Shown piece after piece: positions 6,169-15,696 of a DNA stretch of 64,000 nt (position 1 is the stretch's first letter; every line of letters starts with the position of its first letter). This stretch comes from a virus: IMG/VR virus record IMGVR_UViG_3300031463_000004, positions 1 to 64,000 of that record; one strand, written 5' to 3'. The notes under the pieces were generated by a model that had not been told where the DNA came from, ran no database searches, and saw only the letters and a program-made list of their open reading frames with translations. The position numbers and the translations under genes are program-made.

Positions 6169-7443
6169 CTAATGCACATCGTGCACCAGAAATCGGAGAA
6201 TGCGAGAGGCTAGCTCTCGGTAATCAACCCGAGCGTCACCAGGCAAGTAGAAGACGTCCTTGACAAACTCAGCAAGGCGATGAGCAAGTTTAGGGATTGT
6301 CCGGGAGAAATCCCAGTCAGTTTCTTCAAGAGTGGCTGACACCATATCAGCCACCATATCGTACAGTTCCATGTCGGAAAGGATTGCATCGAGGACCAGT
6401 TTTGTTGCAGCACGAGTCCCCGGCAATTCCGGGTCCTGGAACCCCTGGCTATAGAGATACCCAGCCTTCCGTGTGGATGATTTCTTCTTAGTGTAGTGTT
6501 CCTTGATAATTGTGGACTTGGCGTATTCTGCCGGTCGTATCTCTACCTCGTAGGCTTGGCCATCCGGCGTCCTAACGAGAGCCACCCCGCCGTCTACACT
6601 CGACCTGAATGAAACTACCCTCCCCACAGAGGAAACCATATCCCTGAGAACCTGGAGAGGCGACGCTGGGCGATGTGCCTTGACTCGTACCATTTTATCC
6701 TCCTTAGTCCGAATGCCTCTGTATTGCCCTATAAACGCGGCAGACTCTACCTCCAACATTGTCTGTTCCGCAATCATCTTATCCCCGTACAAGAGTATCC
6801 CCCAGGTGTCTCCAGTCACTGGGTCTACATCAACTGACACAACTGACACTATATGTGGGTCGCCTGAATACCCTATCTTTCCAGATACCACCCTAAGACT
6901 CTTGTAGTCTCCTAAATAGACTCTAATCTTTCTCAATATTGAGTCTAAGGCATCCCGGTATTCTCTCTCCAGTTCTCGTGACTCTGGGTTCTCCCGAAAT
7001 TTATACTCAGCCCTAAGAAGCCGCAAAGCCCCTTCATACACATCGTGGAGTTCCGTATCACTGAGACCATCGTATTCTATGTAATCAGATACCCAGTTAT
7101 CTACAATGGCGCGTTCATCACCAAGAATTGTACCTGGGAACCCTGCATGTTCTAGTGGCGAAACGAAATCATCTTCATCCAGTACCACGGAATCTGTTGC
7201 GTATGTGTTGAGTTCCCCAATGACAAGCATGGGGGAGCCGCCGTGTGCATCGGTTGCCTGCAACGCAGCGTGATAAGCAACTGAAATGTTGGATGTAATG
7301 TAGACACCTGAGTAGGGTCGAAGTGACGGGTATATAGCGTAGTCTGGATGCCAGGTCCAGATAGAGTTTTCTAGGACGTGTACGAGCCCCCTGGAACGAA
7401 TGCGTGGCCAGAACTTGGTAGTTGTCCCATGATACCAGCGCAC
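6169..7443 (-). CDS. Protein with N-terminal ADP-ribosyltransferase-like (H-Y-class/KptA-like) domain and unknown C-terminal part
   Basis: WYHGT..IRSRGL..GVYIT..A motif pattern; GGAGG before GTG 7443; second strong RBS and in-frame ATG at 6693. Confidence 0.6.
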   Translation of the reverse strand: MRWYHGTTTKFWPRIRSRGLVHVLENSIWTWHPDYAIYPSLRPYSGVYITSNISVAYHAALQATDAHGGSPMLVIGELNTYATDSVVLDEDDFVSPLEHAGFPGTILGDERAIVDNWVSDYIEYDGLSDTELHDVYEGALRLLRAEYKFRENPESRELEREYRDALDSILRKIRVYLGDYKSLRVVSGKIGYSGDPHIVSVVSVDVDPVTGDTWGILLYGDKMIAEQTMLEVESAAFIGQYRGIRTKEDKMVRVKAHRPASPLQVLRDMVSSVGRVVSFRSSVDGGVALVRTPDGQAYEVEIRPAEYAKSTIIKEHYTKKKSSTRKAGYLYSQGFQDPELPGTRAATKLVLDAILSDMELYDMVADMVSATLEETDWDFSRTIPKLAHRLAEFVKDVFYLPGDARVDYRELASRILRFLVHDVH

Positions 7444-7474
7444 ACGAACCTCCACACATCCAAAATACTACACG

Positions 7475-7942
7475 ATGGGAGTAGCAAATAGGAAAGTAAC
7501 GTACTTTGCCATTGTGTTAGTTGTGCCTGGAGGTGATGAAGTGGATAGACTAGAGATACCGTCCCGAATACTCCCGATGTGGCGAAGAAATGCCAGGACG
7601 AGCAGGCAATATCTTGGGGTGAAGCAGAAACACATTGTCGTCGCCACTCTCAGGATAGGGAAAAGTCTGTTCACCAGAGTGAACAGTGCGAAGAAAACGT
7701 GCCCAGTACAGAAAGAATACAGTAATGGAGAGAAGAGTCACCTACACGCAGAGATCCGTGTACTCTCCAGATTCGTTGGAGAGGATTTGAGAGGGCCGAT
7801 GTTGGTGACACGCTGGTCCAGGGAAAAGTCGGGATTCACAATGGCAAAACCGTGTAAGTACTGCACAAAATTCATCCGAGAGAACTTCCCCCACCTAGAG
7901 GTAATCTATACCGATAGGTACGGTAATCTGGTATGGCTCTAA
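7475..7942 (+). CDS. Zinc-dependent cytidine/dCMP-deaminase-fold protein
   Basis: HAE and PCxxC (HLHAE...KPCKYC); true start may be downstream. Confidence 0.75.
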   Translation: MGVANRKVTYFAIVLVVPGGDEVDRLEIPSRILPMWRRNARTSRQYLGVKQKHIVVATLRIGKSLFTRVNSAKKTCPVQKEYSNGEKSHLHAEIRVLSRFVGEDLRGPMLVTRWSREKSGFTMAKPCKYCTKFIRENFPHLEVIYTDRYGNLVWL

Positions 7943-8121
7943 GGCTTCAGTCCCTGGTCGTCCCTGATAGTTTCTTCCTTGGATTGGAGAGGGGTCATGC
8001 GGAGGATACGTCGGAGCTTGGCGATCTCCTCTGTGCTTTTCTGTATTTCCCTTGCCGCAGATTCCAGTCTTTCTACCAGGATTTCATGCTCTGGGACGGC
8101 AACGGTTTGAGACCCTGACAT
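7939..8121 (-). CDS. Small coiled-coil hypothetical protein
   Basis: GGAG RBS, helical heptad pattern. Confidence 0.6.
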   Translation of the reverse strand: MSGSQTVAVPEHEILVERLESAAREIQKSTEEIAKLRRILRMTPLQSKEETIRDDQGLKP

Positions 8122-8130
8122 TGCACACTC

Positions 8131-8739
8131 CTACATCCTCTTTCCAACAGCACTCAGTGCAATATTTACAAACTCTTCTTTTAGTAGAGTTGGCCAACTG
8201 TAGATAGTCCCGTCTATTCTACTCTTATAGTAGATACATACCCGAGCTTTTCTCCCCCAGAGTACCTCGGATCTGATATACCCATACCGGAATACGTCGT
8301 ACCAAACTGTAGGTTCGAACATTACTATAGGGTAATCGTCTGGGAGATTCTTTACGTTGATGACATCAGAGTAGGACAAACCACGTATGACAGATGATAT
8401 GGAGTTACGTACTTCATCCCATATCCTATCTATCAATTCCAGGTCCACTCGAACCCTGATTTCAGGATAATCCGGGTGATACTCCGGGATAGTTGGAGAG
8501 TCGAAGCCATTCGGATATACTCTGATTCCGTGTGGGGTGAGGACACACCGATGTGGGTCCACTCCCGGACCAAAGTGCTTCTCCGGACTCCAATTCGGTG
8601 GCAATCTATAGAATTTGTTTGTTCTTTGTCTTGACGTTAAGAAGTGGAGAGATGCAGTACCGAGAATAGCGAGGAAAAGTGCAGAGAGCAAAGATACAAC
8701 CATAAAATTGATGGTGTTATCGTACACGACTTGGCTCAC
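8131..8739 (-). CDS. Hypothetical membrane-anchored protein
   Basis: Hydrophobic N-terminal segment FMVVSLLSALFLAILG. Confidence 0.6.
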   Translation of the reverse strand: MSQVVYDNTINFMVVSLLSALFLAILGTASLHFLTSRQRTNKFYRLPPNWSPEKHFGPGVDPHRCVLTPHGIRVYPNGFDSPTIPEYHPDYPEIRVRVDLELIDRIWDEVRNSISSVIRGLSYSDVINVKNLPDDYPIVMFEPTVWYDVFRYGYIRSEVLWGRKARVCIYYKSRIDGTIYSWPTLLKEEFVNIALSAVGKRM

Positions 8740-10168
8740 GATTTCCGCGTATCCACTGTCGCTCAGTGTGAGTGGAAGCTTTCCTACTTGCCGTATTTAT
8801 TCTCTCCAGCACAGGACCCCATACCTTCTTCTTCTCATCAGGCACACCTTTGTCCTCATACCGTTCCAGGATTCTCCTCTTCAATAGTCCCGAATAGTAC
8901 TTGTCGGGCCCAATCTCACGTTCTTCTTTTCCAATCCCTCTTGGGGTTGTTGCCCGCACTCCAGTCCAAAGAATCTCTTGCGCTTCGGTTGGATGGAGAA
9001 GGCCTTCTGAGATCTTCTGAACTATCTCGCTGTTCTCCAAGATGTCTTTCCCAGTCACATCAACAGGATTCGTATTCAGATACCTTGCAAACTTTCTTAC
9101 GACGTATTCGAGAACTGTGTATTGTGCGGCACTCAGTGTCTCTATTCTTCTCCCATTGAACACAAGCGGACTGAGCAACCGTGCCAGCCATGTGTCTATT
9201 ACAACTGCATTCGGGTCGCCCAGAAGAGCTCGCGCAAAGTTCTTCGTCTTTGGCCCATTAAGCGCACCAAGGCCATCTCTAAATATCCTCTTAACTGCTG
9301 TTTCAACGGATGGGAGCCTATCCACGTATTCATCCCCAAGAAGATAGGACTCATAGGCTCTAATGAACTTATCAATATTCTCTGACATAGAGACCCTTGG
9401 GCTTGTTGCTGCAAGAAGTGCAACAACAATTTCCCTCTCCTTGTCGTCTGGGAAATACTGTCTTAGCTTTTCTGCAGTTCTACGGTACCATCCGTATCCT
9501 GGTGTACCCCTGGAAAAGACATCGAGTATTGTATCAAACAAGTCTCGAACAGACCCATTATTTATCATCCTAGTGAATTTTCTCAACTTCTTGTCCCGGA
9601 GTAATTGATGTATAGATGTGTAGACCTGCCTGAGAATGGTATCCACTGAACCTTCAAATTCTGGAGCTATATCCCGGATGATGTCTAACGCTTTATCACG
9701 GACGCTGTCCCGCCATTCCTGGAACCCATTGAACTCACGTGTAGACTGAATATAGTCATCAAGTAATTCAGCCTTCAGCGTACCAATCAGATCTACTGGG
9801 TATTGTCTTGCCCGCAGTAGAATGGAACGTCTAGTAGGGGCCTCGCCGACGAACCTCCGCTTTCCCTCATTCGGTCTTGTGTGGGAGTCTCGGCAAAAGC
9901 CCCTATTCTGGGTCCGTGAACGGATGTAATCTTCCGTCACGGAGATAATGTCGTCGTAATCGTAAATGCTAATAGGACCATTATGGTCAAGAAGGGATGC
10001 CGCAAGGACGTGGAGAGCGACATCACCTGTACTCCCCTCCACTCTCGATAACGTCTCCCTGGCGTACTCCAGCACTCTAATGAGCGCCGGTGCGTCTATT
10101 GTACATGCAATAGATGCTACCGCCCTGTGGCGGCTATCCGAACTCTTGCGCTGAAGTTTAATGGCCAT
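8717..10168 (-). CDS. Phage protein with DNA-glycosylase-like (DUF7178/HhH-like) domain
   Basis: WY..ALLAATSP..N..GPKT.NF..ALLGD..VVIDTW motif series; GGAGG before ATG 10168. Confidence 0.6.
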   Translation of the reverse strand: MAIKLQRKSSDSRHRAVASIACTIDAPALIRVLEYARETLSRVEGSTGDVALHVLAASLLDHNGPISIYDYDDIISVTEDYIRSRTQNRGFCRDSHTRPNEGKRRFVGEAPTRRSILLRARQYPVDLIGTLKAELLDDYIQSTREFNGFQEWRDSVRDKALDIIRDIAPEFEGSVDTILRQVYTSIHQLLRDKKLRKFTRMINNGSVRDLFDTILDVFSRGTPGYGWYRRTAEKLRQYFPDDKEREIVVALLAATSPRVSMSENIDKFIRAYESYLLGDEYVDRLPSVETAVKRIFRDGLGALNGPKTKNFARALLGDPNAVVIDTWLARLLSPLVFNGRRIETLSAAQYTVLEYVVRKFARYLNTNPVDVTGKDILENSEIVQKISEGLLHPTEAQEILWTGVRATTPRGIGKEEREIGPDKYYSGLLKRRILERYEDKGVPDEKKKVWGPVLERINTASRKASTHTERQWIRGNREPSRVR

Positions 10169-10685
10169 TGAATGCCTCCAACAGAGAATGAGTTTACCTA
10201 TACCAGGATGCGAAGAGTAAAGAAATACCAACGAGAAATCCGTATCTCATAATGACCCTTGGATCTTATTGTGTGGTACAGGAGAAAGAATCAGGAGAAC
10301 CGCTATCAAGGTTCTCCATATTACTAGCAGGGATTGATATGTGGAACAGCGCTCACTATATTATGCGCAAGGATTGATATCGCGGACGTCTCCAGACGGT
10401 ACGTATTGCGTATCCTTTTGGGCGCCCAAAAGGATCGAGTGGGAGACCCGTCACTCCATCTGCTCCCAGTTAAAATTGGCCCTTTTATGGAGGTTTCAGG
10501 AATATATGGACTGGAATAATAGCCTCTAGGACCGGCTTGAGGATAACCTCCTGCTTCTGCAGCTCCCTGCCACGTTGGTTCTTTCCTCCCAGGTCATGCC
10601 CATCTCCTTGAACACCATGCGAAACACTCCTTTGTGTCCAAAGAAAGTGAGGGCAGTTCACAACCCCGTATCCCGTTACAAACGA

Positions 10686-10751
10686 GCTCATATAAGCGCT
10701 TGTATGATATGAGCGCGCATGTATTTTATGCGCAGCGCACATAAAATGCGC
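10686..10751. repeat. Cluster of imperfect palindromes downstream of the methyltransferase (island edge, possible terminator)
   Basis: GCTCATAT..ATATGAGC and ATTTTATG..CATAAAAT arms. Confidence 0.45.
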
Positions 10752-10764
10752 CTTTCCCTAATTT

Positions 10765-12297
10765 TTACACGCCCATTAATGTTGCTTGTTTCGGCTCTGC
10801 ATACTTTGCCAGACCTTCTGCACGTACAAGATGATCAGGCAATGAAAGCCGTTCCAATGCCCGAGGTTCAACCTTTATCGCTCCGCTGCCGTAGGACTTG
10901 CCAACCTTCCGCAAGTTGGCAATGGTTTCAGGGTGTGAGAGCACTTTCCAAAGGTGCTCAATGAAATCTGCATTCGCAAACTTTGGATAAACGCATAGGA
11001 GGCATGTAAGAGGCACCACGCCTGCATAATTTCTAATGAAGCGTAAGTTTCTTCGCCCAAGGTACGCAAACATAATCGGGGGAATCTTTCGAGTCTCCAT
11101 TCGATACCACGGTTTGCGTTTCTGAATGAGCGATTTCTTGTCAATGCCTCGGTTCTCTCCTTCTATCAAATACGCCTGAACCGTAGGTGGGAGGTCATCG
11201 AAAGACAATCCGTTTACGCATAGTAGGCGAGTCGGTCTGGAAGAAGCTTCGAGCCGTTCGATATCTTCATTCGTGAATTGTTCTCCCTGAATATCTCGCG
11301 TTCGGCCCACTGCCTTGACGAGAAATGAATCTGGTATGCCCAATTCCTTTGCCCGTCTTAACGTCATGAAGAAAAACTCATTATCTCCGGTCACGATGCC
11401 GCGCATGACCGATGCAAAGTCGCCAAGGGTGTAGCGGTCTGGTCTGGCTTGCGAAGGCGGACGAGAGAGTCCAGTCGCTAGGGCTTCTTCGACAGTCCTA
11501 CGGTGGACTTCTATCGTCTCATATTTTGACTGCCTAATGCCTGAAAGCAGAGACACCAGTTCTTCTGAGTTCTCCCGCAAACACTTCACCCAATAGAAGT
11601 CCTTCTCTGGGTATTCGTTCCTGATGCAGAGTACCAATACGTTGGTGTCTATACCAGGAAAGGGCGTTGCATCGGGGCAGAATGTAATTACGACATCTAT
11701 CCGGTACTGGGAGGCAATCCACTGCCACAGTTTCTGCGCAAAGACGCCCTCACAGATATCGGAAGACACAATATAACAGAGTCGTCCTCCTGGTGACAGT
11801 GTTTGGAGCGCACGGATGAGGAAATAGACATGCAGCCCTGCGCGTCCATCGATATTTTTCCCGGTAGCCTTTCGAGCAAAGTCGCGCAGGGATGCCTTCT
11901 GCGACGTTGAAAGACGGTGATGTCGGATGTATGGGGGATTCGCAACGATTGCCGGGAACTTCTCGGATGGAGGGTCAAGAACGAAGTCCCGTATCTCCAC
12001 ATTGTGCAGGTCGGAGTCGGTCAGACCTGATTGGTGAGCTTGCGCAAAGATGGTCGGATCAATATCACGCCCGAAAAGGGTCAAATCAAACTCATGCAAT
12101 TTGGAATAGCGTTTTGCGGCGCGAAAAAACACGCCTTCACCCAGGGCAGGGTCGAGCATTTTTTTCGGGTGTTCACGTAAAGCATAGGCGACCATGAACT
12201 CCGCCACCCAGTCTGGTGTCCAGAACTGCCCTTTATTTCGGAGCGTTTCTCGCTCGCAACCTGACGCCGATAGCGCTTGATATCGTGCTCGCTTCAT
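10765..12297 (-). CDS. N6-adenine DNA methyltransferase (gamma class, type II RM-like)
   Basis: GQFWTP, LDPALGEGVF (motif I), NPPY (motif IV), C-terminal target-recognition region. Confidence 0.92.
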   Translation of the reverse strand: MKRARYQALSASGCERETLRNKGQFWTPDWVAEFMVAYALREHPKKMLDPALGEGVFFRAAKRYSKLHEFDLTLFGRDIDPTIFAQAHQSGLTDSDLHNVEIRDFVLDPPSEKFPAIVANPPYIRHHRLSTSQKASLRDFARKATGKNIDGRAGLHVYFLIRALQTLSPGGRLCYIVSSDICEGVFAQKLWQWIASQYRIDVVITFCPDATPFPGIDTNVLVLCIRNEYPEKDFYWVKCLRENSEELVSLLSGIRQSKYETIEVHRRTVEEALATGLSRPPSQARPDRYTLGDFASVMRGIVTGDNEFFFMTLRRAKELGIPDSFLVKAVGRTRDIQGEQFTNEDIERLEASSRPTRLLCVNGLSFDDLPPTVQAYLIEGENRGIDKKSLIQKRKPWYRMETRKIPPIMFAYLGRRNLRFIRNYAGVVPLTCLLCVYPKFANADFIEHLWKVLSHPETIANLRKVGKSYGSGAIKVEPRALERLSLPDHLVRAEGLAKYAEPKQATLMGV

Positions 12298-12464
12298 AGG
12301 GCCTGCTTGATAGAATCCAGAATGGTCAAAACCTGCTCCGCCAAAGGCATCGAAGCGGCGTCAGTGGAAACGCCGGTTTGCTGCCCCAGCAGAATTTCCA
12401 TGTAGTCGTATCCCATACTTCGTTCTGGAAAGACGAACAGATCCGCGGCGAGTGCGTCACTCAT
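12294..12464 (-). pseudogene. 56-aa ORF, probable deletion-junction chimera (start of the ATPase partner gene fused to end of the gene preceding the MTase)
   Basis: MSDALAADLFV...EQVLTILDSIKQAL; start overlaps upstream ATPase stop and stop overlaps MTase ATG. Confidence 0.5.
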
Positions 12465-13692
12465 CGAGCATCCCTCTCAGCAGCAGGCTCTCGAAGAGGC
12501 TGTCCTCCGTTGCGGTCGTGAGTGCAGCAGCAATCTCGTGATCCTTGAACAGATGGCCTGTGATGGGGAAGGGCTCAACGACTGTCGCCTGCCCGTCGCG
12601 CCGCACGTTGAACAGTCCGACGCCGTCTGGCCGCGAGCACGCACCTTTCAGCACGGCATCGCAGAACAGGGGCGAGTGCGTGGTGACGATGACCTGGCGC
12701 CCTTGCTCCAAAGCCAGGGAGAGCAGGAGTTGCGCGATTAACTCGATCCGGCGGGGATGGATACCGTTCTCTGGTTCTTCGAATGCGAGCAATGATCCGC
12801 CCCACGGGTTCACTACGATTGCACACAATGCCAAGACGCGCAGCGTCCCATCCGACACGATACGAGATGAGTATTCAACGCCAGACTGCCGGACGAGAAT
12901 GTCGAGCGTGCCACGCCGCTCGTCAAGGTCCACGGTGAGATCTTCGACGCTGGGCACGAGCGACTGGAGCGTCCGCACAATCGCCTGGAAATGTTTCGGG
13001 TACTCGGCACGAAGCCGATATAGGAACGGCGCGATATCACCTCCACGCACACCGATGTCATCCACGCCAGATGGCGGTCTCGCCTCACGCATGGTGATGT
13101 GTGGGTCGAGGTAATAGGTATGCCACCCCGACAACTCCAGCCGTGTATATTCAATAGACCGGTACATAGGCATTCCAAGCCGTTGGTCTGATAGGATCGC
13201 ATGGTTCTGCCGGAGAGGTTCATTCCGAGGCTTTCCTGCCTCTCTCTTCCGCCGAACTCGCAGGTTACCCTCGACTTGTTCGATAGCGGCAAGACCATTC
13301 GGGTTTCCATCTCGTCCTAAGTCGGTAAGGTATTCATCAGCCACGGAGAGCACACCGGAGGCCGGGGCGATCTCAACGGCGATACGATAGCGATAGGCAT
13401 CTTTCTTCTGCGTGAGGTCTGCTTCTAGGGAGAACTTCGCGGCCGACGACGAGAGCAACTCACCCTGCCCGGAGGATGGAAAGGAGAACGCCTCGACAGG
13501 GTAACCCCGGATTGGCTCACGGAGGGCGTCCCTAAGCGTGCGCTGGGTGCCGATGCGGGAGAGTGCCTGTATCGCATCGAGAAGGTTGCTCTTTCCGGCA
13601 GCGTTTGGACCGAAGAGCACCGCCATTCTCGGAAACTTCACCTCCACATCCTTCAAGGACTTGAAGCCGCATACTGTGAGACTCTTGAGCAT
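12457..13692 (-). CDS. ABC-type ATPase (AAA_21/AAA_15 family, defence-associated)
   Basis: GPNAAGKS Walker A, SDGT signature, FEEPE Walker B, TTHS H-loop. Confidence 0.9.
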   Translation of the reverse strand: MLKSLTVCGFKSLKDVEVKFPRMAVLFGPNAAGKSNLLDAIQALSRIGTQRTLRDALREPIRGYPVEAFSFPSSGQGELLSSSAAKFSLEADLTQKKDAYRYRIAVEIAPASGVLSVADEYLTDLGRDGNPNGLAAIEQVEGNLRVRRKREAGKPRNEPLRQNHAILSDQRLGMPMYRSIEYTRLELSGWHTYYLDPHITMREARPPSGVDDIGVRGGDIAPFLYRLRAEYPKHFQAIVRTLQSLVPSVEDLTVDLDERRGTLDILVRQSGVEYSSRIVSDGTLRVLALCAIVVNPWGGSLLAFEEPENGIHPRRIELIAQLLLSLALEQGRQVIVTTHSPLFCDAVLKGACSRPDGVGLFNVRRDGQATVVEPFPITGHLFKDHEIAAALTTATEDSLFESLLLRGMLDE

Positions 13693-13701
13693 GACCGTCT
13701 C

Positions 13702-13761
13702 CTACCTTGGCACCGCCAGGAGCATCGGATCGAGAAGTCGCTTCTCCTCGCTGTCCTTGTC
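13702..13761 (-). pseudogene. 3' stump of a deleted gene (DKDSEEKRLLDPMLLAVPR*), resembling a DUF1156 protein C-terminus
   Basis: Start-less reading ending in TAG just before the next RBS; family match from memory, unverified. Confidence 0.45.
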
Positions 13762-14899
13762 AATCGTCTCCGACCAGAGCGAGTTGCGAGACTTGTTCAG
13801 GTTTAGTTTTCTGGAACACTGATTCTACCATCGAGAGTCCACTATCGAGTAGGCGGCGAGTATCCTGGTAGGAGGACGCCAGTTTCGCATCGGTACCCGC
13901 AACTCCTGGAACAAGCAGCAGAACTTCGTCGAGCCCTATACCCTCGTCCAGGAGCAGACTGGGAGAATGCGTGCTGAGGAAGATCTGGCGACCAGTTCGG
14001 CGTTGCAAGCGCTCCAGCATTTGTGGCAGAACGCACACGACCTCGGGGTGCAGGGAGAGCTCAGGCTCTTCTAGCAAGAGAAGTCCCTCCCCTTCTATGA
14101 CGGCCCAGAGAAGCCCAATCAGCCGTAGCGTACCATCGGAGAACTGCTCCTCAGTTTGCCGTGCGTCTTGCTGGCACCAGTGCTTGTACTTACCCCACAA
14201 GTGCGGGGTTCCACATACATCACGACATAGCCCGATTTCTTGCATCTGGGGCACGGCGACCTGGAGAGCCACTTGGATACGCCTCAATCTCGCCTTGAGC
14301 GTTTTCTCAGGGGTCTTGGCGATCTGCTCTAGAAAGTCACCACCAAACGGGTCATTGGCCCGACCGACTGAGCGAGCGGGATCCCGCACGAGCTGGGGCA
14401 CAATGTGCAGATATCGGGTTGAGGCAAAGAAGGTTACGATGTCGCGGAAGTCGCGATTGACATTTACCTGTTCGAGAAACGTTTGTGTCAAGCGGGCAGG
14501 ATCAGCATTGTCATGCTCATCAGGCCGGCAGAAAAGCACCTCGCCCTGCCGCAAGACACGCTCTTTCTTCAGCAGCGGACGGCACTGCGGGTCCTGATTA
14601 AATGCCACCTCATAGACCCATATCCTTCCATCGTTCGCTTCCTGAAGTTCGACAAGAAGCTCGATGTCTGGATGACGTCTAGCGGAGAGACAGCGAATGG
14701 CACGCACGCCGCCGCGACGAGTCACAGCCTCTTGGAAACCGCCTCCAGAAGAGGAGAGATCGCGCAAGAAACGAAACGCATCCAAGAAGTTCGACTTTCC
14801 CGAGGCGTTCGGCCCAACGATGAACATTCGGTCTGGAATCTCGACCTCCACGTTCTGAAAATTTTTCCAGTTTCTGAGTACGAGTTTACGAAATCTCAT
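13760..14899 (-). CDS. ABC-type ATPase (AAA_21 family, defence-associated)
   Basis: GPNASGKS, FSDGTLR, LLLEEPE, STHS. Confidence 0.9.
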   Translation of the reverse strand: MRFRKLVLRNWKNFQNVEVEIPDRMFIVGPNASGKSNFLDAFRFLRDLSSSGGGFQEAVTRRGGVRAIRCLSARRHPDIELLVELQEANDGRIWVYEVAFNQDPQCRPLLKKERVLRQGEVLFCRPDEHDNADPARLTQTFLEQVNVNRDFRDIVTFFASTRYLHIVPQLVRDPARSVGRANDPFGGDFLEQIAKTPEKTLKARLRRIQVALQVAVPQMQEIGLCRDVCGTPHLWGKYKHWCQQDARQTEEQFSDGTLRLIGLLWAVIEGEGLLLLEEPELSLHPEVVCVLPQMLERLQRRTGRQIFLSTHSPSLLLDEGIGLDEVLLLVPGVAGTDAKLASSYQDTRRLLDSGLSMVESVFQKTKPEQVSQLALVGDD

Positions 14900-14985
14900 T
14901 CAGAATCTCCATACAGCAGCGGTTCCTCCAGAACCTGAATCGGCTGCGCCCGAACATCCACCAGTAGAGCACTCGTACTCCATGA
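14896..14985 (-). pseudogene. Probable 3' stump of an upstream host gene (..LLVDVRAQPIQVLEEPLLYGDSE*)
   Basis: Stop overlaps the ATPase ATG (ATGA); tail recalls SNF2/DUF3883 helicase ends, unverified. Confidence 0.3.
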
Positions 14986-15065
14986 CCACCCGCATTGACG
15001 TGGCCTCAGTCTCCTGATTGGGCTTAGGCTGCTGGACCTCGGGCGTTTCTCGCCCTAGATGGATA

Positions 15066-15314
15066 CTACTTGGAGCTAAGACACTTACGATGATAACTGT
15101 TAGCGATGAGGGGCCCAGCGTCTACACCACGTCCGCATATTCTACATCTTCCTGGCATAGCATGAGACACGCTGGAACTACCACACATTGAACAGTATCC
15201 GTGAATATCTAGCCACACGAACTGCCTACAGTCTTCGCACCAATACTGCACTCTAGTATTGAGCTTGGGTGGGATATAGGTGGAAGAATCCGGTCTTTGC
15301 ATACCAGCCTCCAC
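15066..15314 (-). CDS. Small zinc-ribbon protein
   Basis: CEDC, CSMC, CRIC, HxxC. Confidence 0.6.
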   Translation of the reverse strand: MEAGMQRPDSSTYIPPKLNTRVQYWCEDCRQFVWLDIHGYCSMCGSSSVSHAMPGRCRICGRGVDAGPLIANSYHRKCLSSK

Positions 15315-15333
15315 CTATGACTAACACACCACG

Positions 15334-15696
15334 CTACTCGCCCCTTATCCAGGCCACGAGTCCAATACTCCCCTTCTTATTCTTGAAGAAGTGGACTTGT
15401 CGCAGCCTCTCTTTTGCCGCCTTCAGGCTGTCGTAAGTTCCCAGATTTCTCCCCTCTTCCGAATACACCCGCCACTTATTTTTCCCTGGGAGTTTCCGAA
15501 TATATGAACTGAATCTCCTGGATGCCCGGATTCCCTTCTCGTAGTATCCAGAACTCGGAGTATTCTGCTGAGCTGACCCCGAATCGTGTTGATACATTCT
15601 CGGGGAACCAGACTGAGCTGGAGCTCCGCGCTCCGTAATCCAAGAGTCCTCCTCAGGTACCTCAAACCACCGCCTTCGTCTCAACCGTCCCATCAC
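15334..15696 (-). CDS. Small basic phage protein
   Basis: C-terminal KWRVYSEEGRNLGTYDSLKAAKERLRQV module; ends WIRGE. Confidence 0.65.
   Translation of the reverse strand: MMGRLRRRRWFEVPEEDSWITERGAPAQSGSPRMYQHDSGSAQQNTPSSGYYEKGIRASRRFSSYIRKLPGKNKWRVYSEEGRNLGTYDSLKAAKERLRQVHFFKNKKGSIGLVAWIRGE

Follow-up and report, generated by a model that had tools for sequence, protein, structure and literature searches.

A probable remnant of a bacterial Hma defence locus in a large phage: two HEC-01A ATPases without partners upstream of an orphan DNA methylase

Introduction

HEC-01 (Hma-embedded candidate 01) is a pair formed by the ABC ATPase HEC-01A and the TOPRIM-like protein HEC-01B, found embedded in Hma systems (Payne et al., bioRxiv 10.1101/2024.01.29.577857; PADLOC-DB v2). 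The representative described there did not confer protection in the assay employed (bioRxiv 10.1101/2024.01.29.577857). The Hma (helicase-methylase-ATPase) system is composed of the SNF2 helicase HmaA, the DUF1156 methylase HmaB and the DUF499 ATPase HmaC, with slots that hold cassettes. A system of related logic, PARIS, joins the ABC ATPase AriA to AriB, a TOPRIM nuclease of the DUF4435 type (PMC11464382). This work deals with an island of minus-strand genes in a phage, where two ABC ATPases related to HEC-01A, here named ATPase2 and ATPase1, stand upstream of a DNA methylase. The DNA analyzed (the window) was the first 64 kb of the 78.5-kb IMG/VR virus record IMGVR_UViG_3300031463_000004, the completeness of which is estimated at 49%; all coordinates are window positions unless a locus is named.

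The island is probably a captured and decaying fragment of an Hma locus, in which the ATPases have lost their effectors and are drifting, and the methylase is likely the useful cargo. An earlier note, made from the sequence of the window, had described the segment 10750-15060 as a captured defence island from which separate deletions had removed the harmful components and spared the protective ones, with the ATPases acting as decoys for host effectors. The capture and the losses were borne out by the comparisons reported here, while the proposed purpose was not supported.

Results

Remnants of HmaA and HmaB beside the ATPases

The features of the island on which the argument depends are the following (lengths in amino acids, aa, base pairs, bp, or codons; ORF, open reading frame).

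14900..15061, minus strand: remnant of the 3' end of the gene for the SNF2 helicase HmaA, about 160 bp in two pieces (blastn and tblastn).
13760..14899, minus strand: ATPase2, intact ABC ATPase of 379 aa, HEC-01A family, without partner (AAA_21, 8.6e-36; PADLOC HEC-01A model PDLC04180, 2.6e-151).
13693..13759, minus strand: 67-bp spacer with the tail of the DUF1156 methylase HmaB (protein and blastn match).
12457..13692, minus strand: ATPase1, intact ABC ATPase of 411 aa, second HEC-01A subfamily, without partner (AAA_21, 1.2e-32; HEC-01A model PDLC04184, 2.5e-54).
12294..12464, minus strand: orf56, an ORF of 56 codons that bridges the ATPase1 stop and the methylase start (junction alignment with loci L041 and L042).
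10765..12297, minus strand: orphan gamma-class N6-adenine DNA methylase of 510 aa (N6_Mtase, 4.9e-14; Eco57I, 1.8e-13; PADLOC MTase_II model PDLC03267, 2.9e-55).

In the direction of the minus strand, the order is thus a phage gene rich in CxxC motifs, 160 bp of non-coding DNA, ATPase2, a 67-bp gap, ATPase1, orf56 and the methylase. Both non-coding intervals turned out to hold the ends of Hma core genes. The homology to HmaA begins 5 nucleotides (nt) past the stop of the phage gene at 15066. Within the last 200 residues of HmaA, window positions 15061-14960 correspond to residues 51-84, and positions 14970-14902, in a different frame, to residues 177-199; a deletion of about 92 codons, comprising most of the NOV_C domain, separates the two pieces (in the HmaA of locus L017, recognized by PADLOC with 5.9e-173, NOV_C occupies residues 1030-1116). 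In blastn comparisons, the DNA homology of loci L015 and L017 (and L021) passed the start of ATPase2 and extended into 14900-14962, and positions 4899-4979 of L021 aligned to window 15052-14972 with 75% identity (E 2e-10). In tblastn comparisons, HmaA C-termini matched the window with E 1e-11 and 0.003. ATPase2 has its ribosome-binding site in this stretch, which also contains a 31-aa remnant ORF (14900-14995); the tail that the earlier note had seen at 14896 is the end of this 160-bp remnant.

The second interval contains the end of HmaB. Positions 13758-13705 are its last 18 codons, followed by a stop codon (13704-13702) and then by the AGGAG ribosome-binding site of ATPase1. The residues are identical to the C-terminus of the HmaB of locus L043 in 16 of 18 positions, L002 matches too, and positions 316-375 of L041 matched the spacer in blastn (82%, E 4e-11). 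The ATPase2 stop codon is no more than 2 nt away from the deletion junction. This gives an identity to the 19-codon tail without start codon noticed previously at 13702-13761. The same tail, by virtue of its common KRL residues, had been a candidate for the C-terminus of ATPase2's own partner, which was ruled out by the 16/18 match to HmaB. In L043, a copy of the HmaB tail fused to the HmaC head directly precedes the ATPase1 cassette, and for this reason the HmaB tail before ATPase1 in the phage may be the normal left flank of such a cassette.

The phage block is an Hma locus after at least four losses, namely the greater part of HmaA, a segment inside the HmaA tail, the partner of ATPase2 together with nearly all of HmaB, and the partner of ATPase1 together with everything downstream. 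Of the Hma core genes, HmaA is left with about 160 bp and HmaB with 54 bp, and HmaC is absent; in place of the intact Hma system in which HEC-01 is embedded, only 3'-end remnants of HmaA and HmaB were found. The homology of these scars is that of a captured piece of a bacterial defence locus, as had been proposed, and the ancestral order put forward then (helicase, ATPase, TOPRIM-like partner, DUF1156 methylase, ATPase, partner) matches two bacterial loci: L017, with HmaA, an ATPase of the ATPase2 type, HEC-01B and HmaB, and L043, with the HmaB end, embedded cassettes including an ATPase of the ATPase1 type with its DUF4276 partner, and HmaC. On the other hand, the Hma methylase, the helicase and HmaC are gone as well as the partners, which does not agree with a selective removal of harmful parts and sparing of protective ones.

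In the L043 locus (positions 1-6764 of contig C513 of genome G238), the slot that separates the end of HmaB from the start of HmaC holds a nucleotidyltransferase/HEPN-like pair and, together with its DUF4276 partner, the ATPase1-type cassette. The ATPase cassette is preceded by a chimeric ORF of 118 aa (HmaC head plus HmaB tail), and a 108-aa ORF after it contains a degraded, frame-shifted copy of the HmaC/HmaB junction. These junction repeats look like recombination scars of cassette insertion.

Composition and integrity of the block

By composition, the foreign block spans approximately 12300-15061 (about 2.8 kb) with 55-59% GC versus 48.6% in the whole window. The values were 58.7% for ATPase1, 55.3% for ATPase2 and 57.8% for the HmaA remnant, and the GC content of third codon positions (GC3) was 60-67% for the ATPases and the 160-bp stretch. 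The methylase has a composition near that of the phage (GC 50.6%, GC3 52%) and, because of this, it may not be part of the captured block. The GC-richer block of the earlier note was thus recovered, but its limits (10750-15060) hold only for the part from about 12300 onwards.

A sharp GC step next to genes of bacterial affinities could also be produced if phage and bacterial reads had been joined in a chimeric assembly. This is almost certainly wrong, since identical ATPase2, ATPase1, orf56 and methylase proteins were found in JGI/IMG, Logan and ENA assemblies, on contigs of up to 131 kb, orf56 spans the junction between ATPase1 and the methylase, and the GC-to-AT drift described below fits residence in a phage.

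The ATPases and their missing partners

Both proteins are AAA_21/AAA_15 ABC ATPases with HEC-01A as the top PADLOC models; the models of AriA, mad3 and OLD scored far below HEC-01A for both. Family alignments showed Walker A, signature, Walker B and H-loop intact in ATPase1 and ATPase2, as read earlier from the sequence, so that each of them is an ABC ATPase of the HEC-01A type. They belong to very conserved and widespread bacterial families. ATPase2 is 73-77% identical to thousands of bacterial proteins, with 70-77% identity across several phyla. ATPase1 reaches up to 89% identity to bacterial proteins, with a constant length of 411 aa; its nearest relatives are P0122-P0124 (84-89%), and no further member was found in its 90% cluster. 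A sample of 401 Chloroflexota genomes contained no relatives of ATPase1.

IMG/VR was scanned with ATPase2, ATPase1, the methylase, two flanking phage genes and an exact DNA word of the methylase, with no match, in a scan whose output may leave out near relatives. INPHARED contained no close relatives of the three proteins and gave no megablast match to the island. In plasmid and phage collections, tblastn with ATPase1 and the methylase detected only relatives of 35% identity or less.

The bacterial relatives of the ATPases have partners. Loci with ATPase2 relatives were examined in 36 cases, 22 of them with enough downstream sequence, and a full-length protein of about 200 aa came right after the ATPase in 17 of the 22. 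This partner is recognized by PADLOC as HEC-01B and gives weak DUF4276 matches. The four closest checkable loci (L014, L016, L017 and L033; 73-75% identity) all have it, with the partner start overlapping the ATPase stop. In the ATPase1-type loci, namely L041 (= L043; 62%), L042 (56%) and L038 (40-46%), a DUF4276 partner occupies the corresponding position in three out of three. In the phage, the positions of the partners are occupied only by the 67-bp gap and the 56-codon ORF. A tblastn search of the window with seven partner proteins gave nothing better than E 0.07, and neither partner type matched the window at E ≤0.01. The 78.5-kb record gave no match to PDLC04194 or PF14103, the latter negative having little weight because PF14103 matched no control genome either. 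No TOPRIM-like HEC-01B (DUF4276-type) partner is therefore adjacent to either ATPase. The absence of an intact nuclease, already noticed in the earlier note, extends in this sense to the whole record, and the deletion junctions map to the stumps as had been anticipated.

The partner-less arrangement could have been inherited ready-made, that is, the Hma locus of the host would already have decayed, and the phage would have taken the remnant with no deletion occurring in the phage or for its benefit. An argument for this comes from a gammaproteobacterial chromosome (L002 in genome G001, 7366-11875), which carries a bacterial remnant parallel to the phage block. A 212-aa C-terminal fragment of HmaA is followed by an ATPase2-like gene (65%), by a 166-aa ORF in which the N-terminal 28 residues of the partner are fused to roughly the last 60 of HmaB, by a HEC-01A ATPase (PDLC04182, 4.8e-182) and by a 227-aa ORF. 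Decay is seen in other bacterial loci too: L016 and L033 have no HmaA and a truncated HmaB start, the partner is cut short in L011 and L019, and in L013 and L023 the ATPase carries a frameshift. However, the breakpoints of L002 differ from those of the phage, which makes it a parallel case and not the donor, the closest inspectable relatives (73-77% identity) all have the partner, and the GC-to-AT bias described below means that much of the change occurred in an AT-richer background, that of the phage. A wholly ready-made origin is considered unlikely; in the preferred reading of a fragment decaying in the phage, some of the deletions may likewise be older than the capture.

In L013 and L023 (a metagenome-assembled genome of Desulfobacterales and a metagenome contig), a frameshift near residue 230 divides the ATPase2 homologue (68%) between two frames, and in L012 a copy of the ATPase2 homologue is broken into three ORFs.

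Constraint on the ATPases and the question of a decoy role

The conservation of the ATPase families allowed the phage copies to be compared column by column with the bacterial members. ATPase2 has changes at 9 of 153 columns which are at least 98% conserved, while the median member has 1 and only 0.8% of the members reach 9; it is also changed at 20 of 89 columns with 90-98% conservation. The non-conservative changes cluster at residues 219-247, a formerly invariant patch. In a quartet with L014, L016 and L017, the ratio of nonsynonymous to synonymous changes (N/S) was 27/37 = 0.73 in the phage branch versus 0.24-0.44 in the others. The phage branch of ATPase2 accumulated 53 GC-to-AT versus 14 AT-to-GC changes, a bias indicative of drift within the AT-richer phage.

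A sister copy of ATPase2 (P0243; 92% identical, full length, on a 28-kb Logan contig) has 25 of 29 deviations in common with the phage protein and 11 of its own, which include E278K, a change of the invariant Walker B glutamate. At the protein level, to which this comparison refers, the phage copy and P0243 differ at 30 positions, of which 16 (53%) fall in conserved columns; in 725 bacterial reference pairs the median was 14% and none reached 53%, with a neutral expectation of about 64%. ATPase1 was less affected than ATPase2, with 17 deviations at columns at least 90% conserved (member median 7, maximum 17). Judged from these sequence comparisons, both ATPases have been under relaxed constraint since capture.

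Several points weigh against a simple decay. Neither of the ATPase ORFs is touched by any of the four separate deletion junctions, nor are their ribosome-binding sites. The N/S of 0.73 is still below the neutral expectation, which speaks for some constraint on the phage branch. The derived form of ATPase2 has been kept through 8% protein divergence between the phage and P0243, both copies being full length. Both ATPase ORFs are free of stops; in simulations with the observed mutation spectrum, the probability of finding no stop in ATPase2 after 40-60 neutral substitutions was 0.11-0.22, which is not significant for ATPase2 alone, although the probability is lower when both genes are taken together. 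With the record only 49% complete, a partner could lie elsewhere in the phage. Finally, when the deletions took place, and the dN/dS since the capture, can be judged only indirectly, the comparison with the sister copy P0243 being at the protein level.

Open frames were also considered as a proof of selection, and were rejected as such on account of the non-significant simulation result for ATPase2.

The sparing of the two ATPases by every deletion, their intact ATP-binding motifs and an N/S below neutral are also what could be expected if the orphan proteins had been selected as anti-defence decoys, which would hold a host nuclease of the HEC-01B type or soak up its trigger while the methylase protects against restriction. 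There is a precedent in PARIS, where AriA sequesters AriB and an AriA mutant in ATP binding loads AriB without release (PMC11464382). Complex prediction lends weak support, as the phage ATPase2 dimer modelled with the partner of L016 scored 0.54 versus 0.00 for the best of three controls. The mark used for such predictions was reached by 58 of 80 solved complexes and by 2 of 110 mismatched pairs; the complexes reaching it with scores ≤0.60 were only 7 of the 80 solved ones, together with both passing mismatches. The runs agreed in at least 88% of the contacts, and the partner had pLDDT values (predicted local distance difference test) of at least 85. A prediction of this kind would indicate the likeness of the pair and not binding by the phage copy.

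Nevertheless, the decoy role is judged improbable. Constraint is relaxed on both ATPases, including the mutated 219-247 patch, and the sister P0243 has lost the catalytic glutamate besides having 10 other changes at conserved positions. The L002 chromosome has the same architecture, and a decoy would make no sense there. Close relatives were found in no other phage of IMG/VR or INPHARED. HEC-01 gave no defence in its only published test, hence there is no known activity to counter. The analogy with toxin-antitoxin pairs is loose, since AriA is also needed to activate AriB in PARIS. A more specific form of the proposal takes the ATPases as effector sinks, which would dock a host DUF4276/TOPRIM nuclease without releasing it and so neutralize HEC-01 cassettes; the 219-247 patch and the Walker B change of the sister would then be adaptive, making a protein that holds but never fires. 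This form is regarded as quite improbable.

The earlier note had itself named outcomes that would argue against its reading: nearest bacterial loci already without partners, relaxed selection on the ATPases, or a chimeric assembly. Relaxed constraint was observed, and L002 is already partner-less and HmaB-deleted, while the closest inspectable loci keep the partner, and the presence of identical proteins, the junction-spanning orf56 included, in JGI, Logan and ENA assemblies speaks against a chimera. The decoy or anti-defence role is thus not supported by these results, and the reading preferred here is that of ATPases drifting without effectors in a captured fragment.

The methylase and orf56

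The methylase has the two motifs of its class intact, motif I at about residues 48-58 and NPPY at residue 120, in agreement with its first description. Its assignment as a gamma-class N6-adenine methylase is based on matches to PF02384 (52.8 bits; cut-off 20.4) and PF07669 (51.4 bits; cut-off 25.3). No cognate endonuclease was detected, as the neighbouring ORFs had no Pfam or PADLOC nuclease match with which a type II restriction-modification pair could be formed; nor was there any trace of the restriction enzyme that had been supposed to stand once beside a methylase which is phage-like in composition. In phage and plasmid collections its relatives are only distant (≤28% identity). On the other hand, it has twins (P0245 and P0246; 98.6-99.6% identical) on other contigs, of 5.6 and 108.7 kb respectively, and it is nearly invariant across three contigs.

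No homology to the methylase or to orf56 was found beside ATPase2 relatives in the 36 loci, nor among them a collinear donor locus including this methylase. That no locus joins it to these ATPases, that its composition differs from theirs and that it has twins elsewhere, ATPase1 being alone in its 90% cluster, weakly suggests that the methylase is a resident phage gene.

Since the three large genes, ATPase2, ATPase1 and the methylase, form one operon, they might make up a working phage-borne defence or exclusion system, either MADS-like or Hma-like, and there are indeed weak PADLOC matches to mad2 (5.3e-15) and mad3 (9.8e-29). This is very improbable. With the NCBIfam models, MADS3 (NF047739) gave 129 and 71 bits versus a cut-off of 420, and MAD2 (NF047738) gave 22.6 versus 720. 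No effector or nuclease was found, neither the methylase nor orf56 occurs beside the ATPase2 relatives of the 36 loci, and the difference in composition between methylase and ATPases points to separate origins.

For orf56, the ORF between ATPase1 and the methylase, the overlap is 8 nt at the ATPase1 stop and 4 nt at the methylase start; it is the 56-aa ORF that had been seen to overlap both neighbours. Its ATG is the start codon of the DUF4276 partner in L041/L042, a position forced by the conserved C-terminus of ATPase1, LLDE followed by a stop, and its first residues have in common with the partner a short DLFV motif. In shuffle tests, the similarity of orf56 to the N-termini of three partner proteins was not significant (p 0.08-0.5). 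No homologue other than itself was found among 1.84 billion representatives, nor in the 'longer' word search. With the common start codon and the DLFV motif as its only basis, orf56 is probably a stump of the partner fused to other sequence rather than a conserved protein, its homology to the partner being unproven. The most fitting view of orf56 is that of a by-product ORF, which connects the stop of ATPase1 with the start of the methylase.

One 2135-aa protein returned in the searches with orf56 had no aligned stretch and was treated as noise.

Surroundings of the island

The window contains phage genes for a DNA polymerase, a fused SbcCD and a Hoc-like protein, and the island sits within a run of minus-strand genes. 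On its upstream side it is bounded by the following gene.

15066..15314, minus strand: phage gene of 82 aa, rich in CxxC motifs, with its stop 5 nt from the start of the HmaA homology.

Inside the block, no sigma-70-like promoter or terminator was found on the minus (coding) strand, for which reason the region of the 82-aa gene is the likely source of transcription into the island. A heptamer, TGTGTTA, is present on the minus strand at 15322-15328, a few bases upstream of the ribosome-binding site of this gene; it may be a putative promoter element driving transcription into the island.

On the downstream side, the methylase is followed by about 530 bp of non-coding DNA, a spacer (10232-10764) without a convincing ORF. 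An AT-rich palindromic stretch with GCGCAT/ATGCGC words lies just past the methylase stop (10696-10745), with a 9-bp hairpin at 10696-10716, and a terminator-like hairpin (10294-10317) is found before the next gene. This one (8717-10231, minus strand) codes for a 504-aa protein with a DUF7178 domain (2.7e-12) and a match to phrog_3842, a group of unassigned function; a word scan of IMG/VR gave no relatives of it. The ORFs flanking the island genes had no Pfam match, and an Rfam search of 10000-15500 gave none either.

Discussion

A course of events can be proposed that fits the probable nature of the island as a captured and decaying Hma fragment. A piece of a bacterial Hma locus would have landed in a large phage, possibly by illegitimate recombination, with a small phage gene immediately upstream of it and an orphan methylase downstream. 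It would have kept the two embedded-cassette HEC-01A ATPases, which normally reside in the HmaA/HmaB and HmaB/HmaC slots, and lost both DUF4276/TOPRIM-like partners and the three Hma core genes, with only scars left behind. Without an effector, the ATPases would be unable to work as a HEC-01 system, and since the capture they would have drifted under relaxed constraint toward the AT-richer composition of the phage. The methylase would be the gene most likely under selection, as it would protect phage DNA from restriction; transcription would come to it through the ATPases and orf56, and so, probably, would coupled translation.

The scars let the donor locus be rebuilt gene by gene, which makes the island a clean and datable example of a phage taking part of a host defence island and then losing all but two sensor ATPases. 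They add a second context, that of a phage, to the recombination scars which mark the cassette slots of Hma. The island is also a concrete and cheap case for asking whether orphan sensor ATPases can act as anti-defence sinks. If it is true that the ATPases do nothing but decay, it would be an ordinary case of moron-like capture with the orphan methylase as its useful part.

Comparison with known systems

The closest described system is HEC-01. The best models of the phage ATPases are those of HEC-01A, their bacterial relatives lie in Hma loci with a HEC-01B/DUF4276 partner of about 200 aa, and scars of HmaA and HmaB flank the phage genes. The phage block differs in having neither HEC-01B nor the Hma core genes, in its location in a phage and not in a bacterial genome, and in that two ATPases of different subfamilies, both under relaxed constraint, have been joined head to tail by deletion. 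As regards Hma itself, the remnants match the 3' ends of HmaA and HmaB, and L043 has copies of the HmaB tail ahead of the ATPase1 cassette and of the 108-aa ORF which follows, as in the phage; the difference is that the phage keeps only the two short remnants described above and no HmaC.

With PARIS, the phage ATPases have in common the broad AAA_21/AAA_15 class, with AriA model matches of 1e-31 to 1e-35, and the general logic of an ATPase scaffold paired with a TOPRIM effector. However, they belong to another subfamily, the partner of their relatives is of the DUF4276 and not of the DUF4435 type, and the block has no effector, no TOPRIM protein having been found that could form with them a pair of the AriA-AriB type. 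Moreover, PARIS is often intact in phages and satellites, whereas here there is a fragment.

The methylase resembles the orphan DNA methylases of phages, which serve in self-protection: it is a stand-alone gamma-class N6-adenine enzyme with intact motifs and no endonuclease nearby. It differs from them in that its relatives in the phage and plasmid collections are so distant, and in that it is translationally chained to a bacterial remnant.

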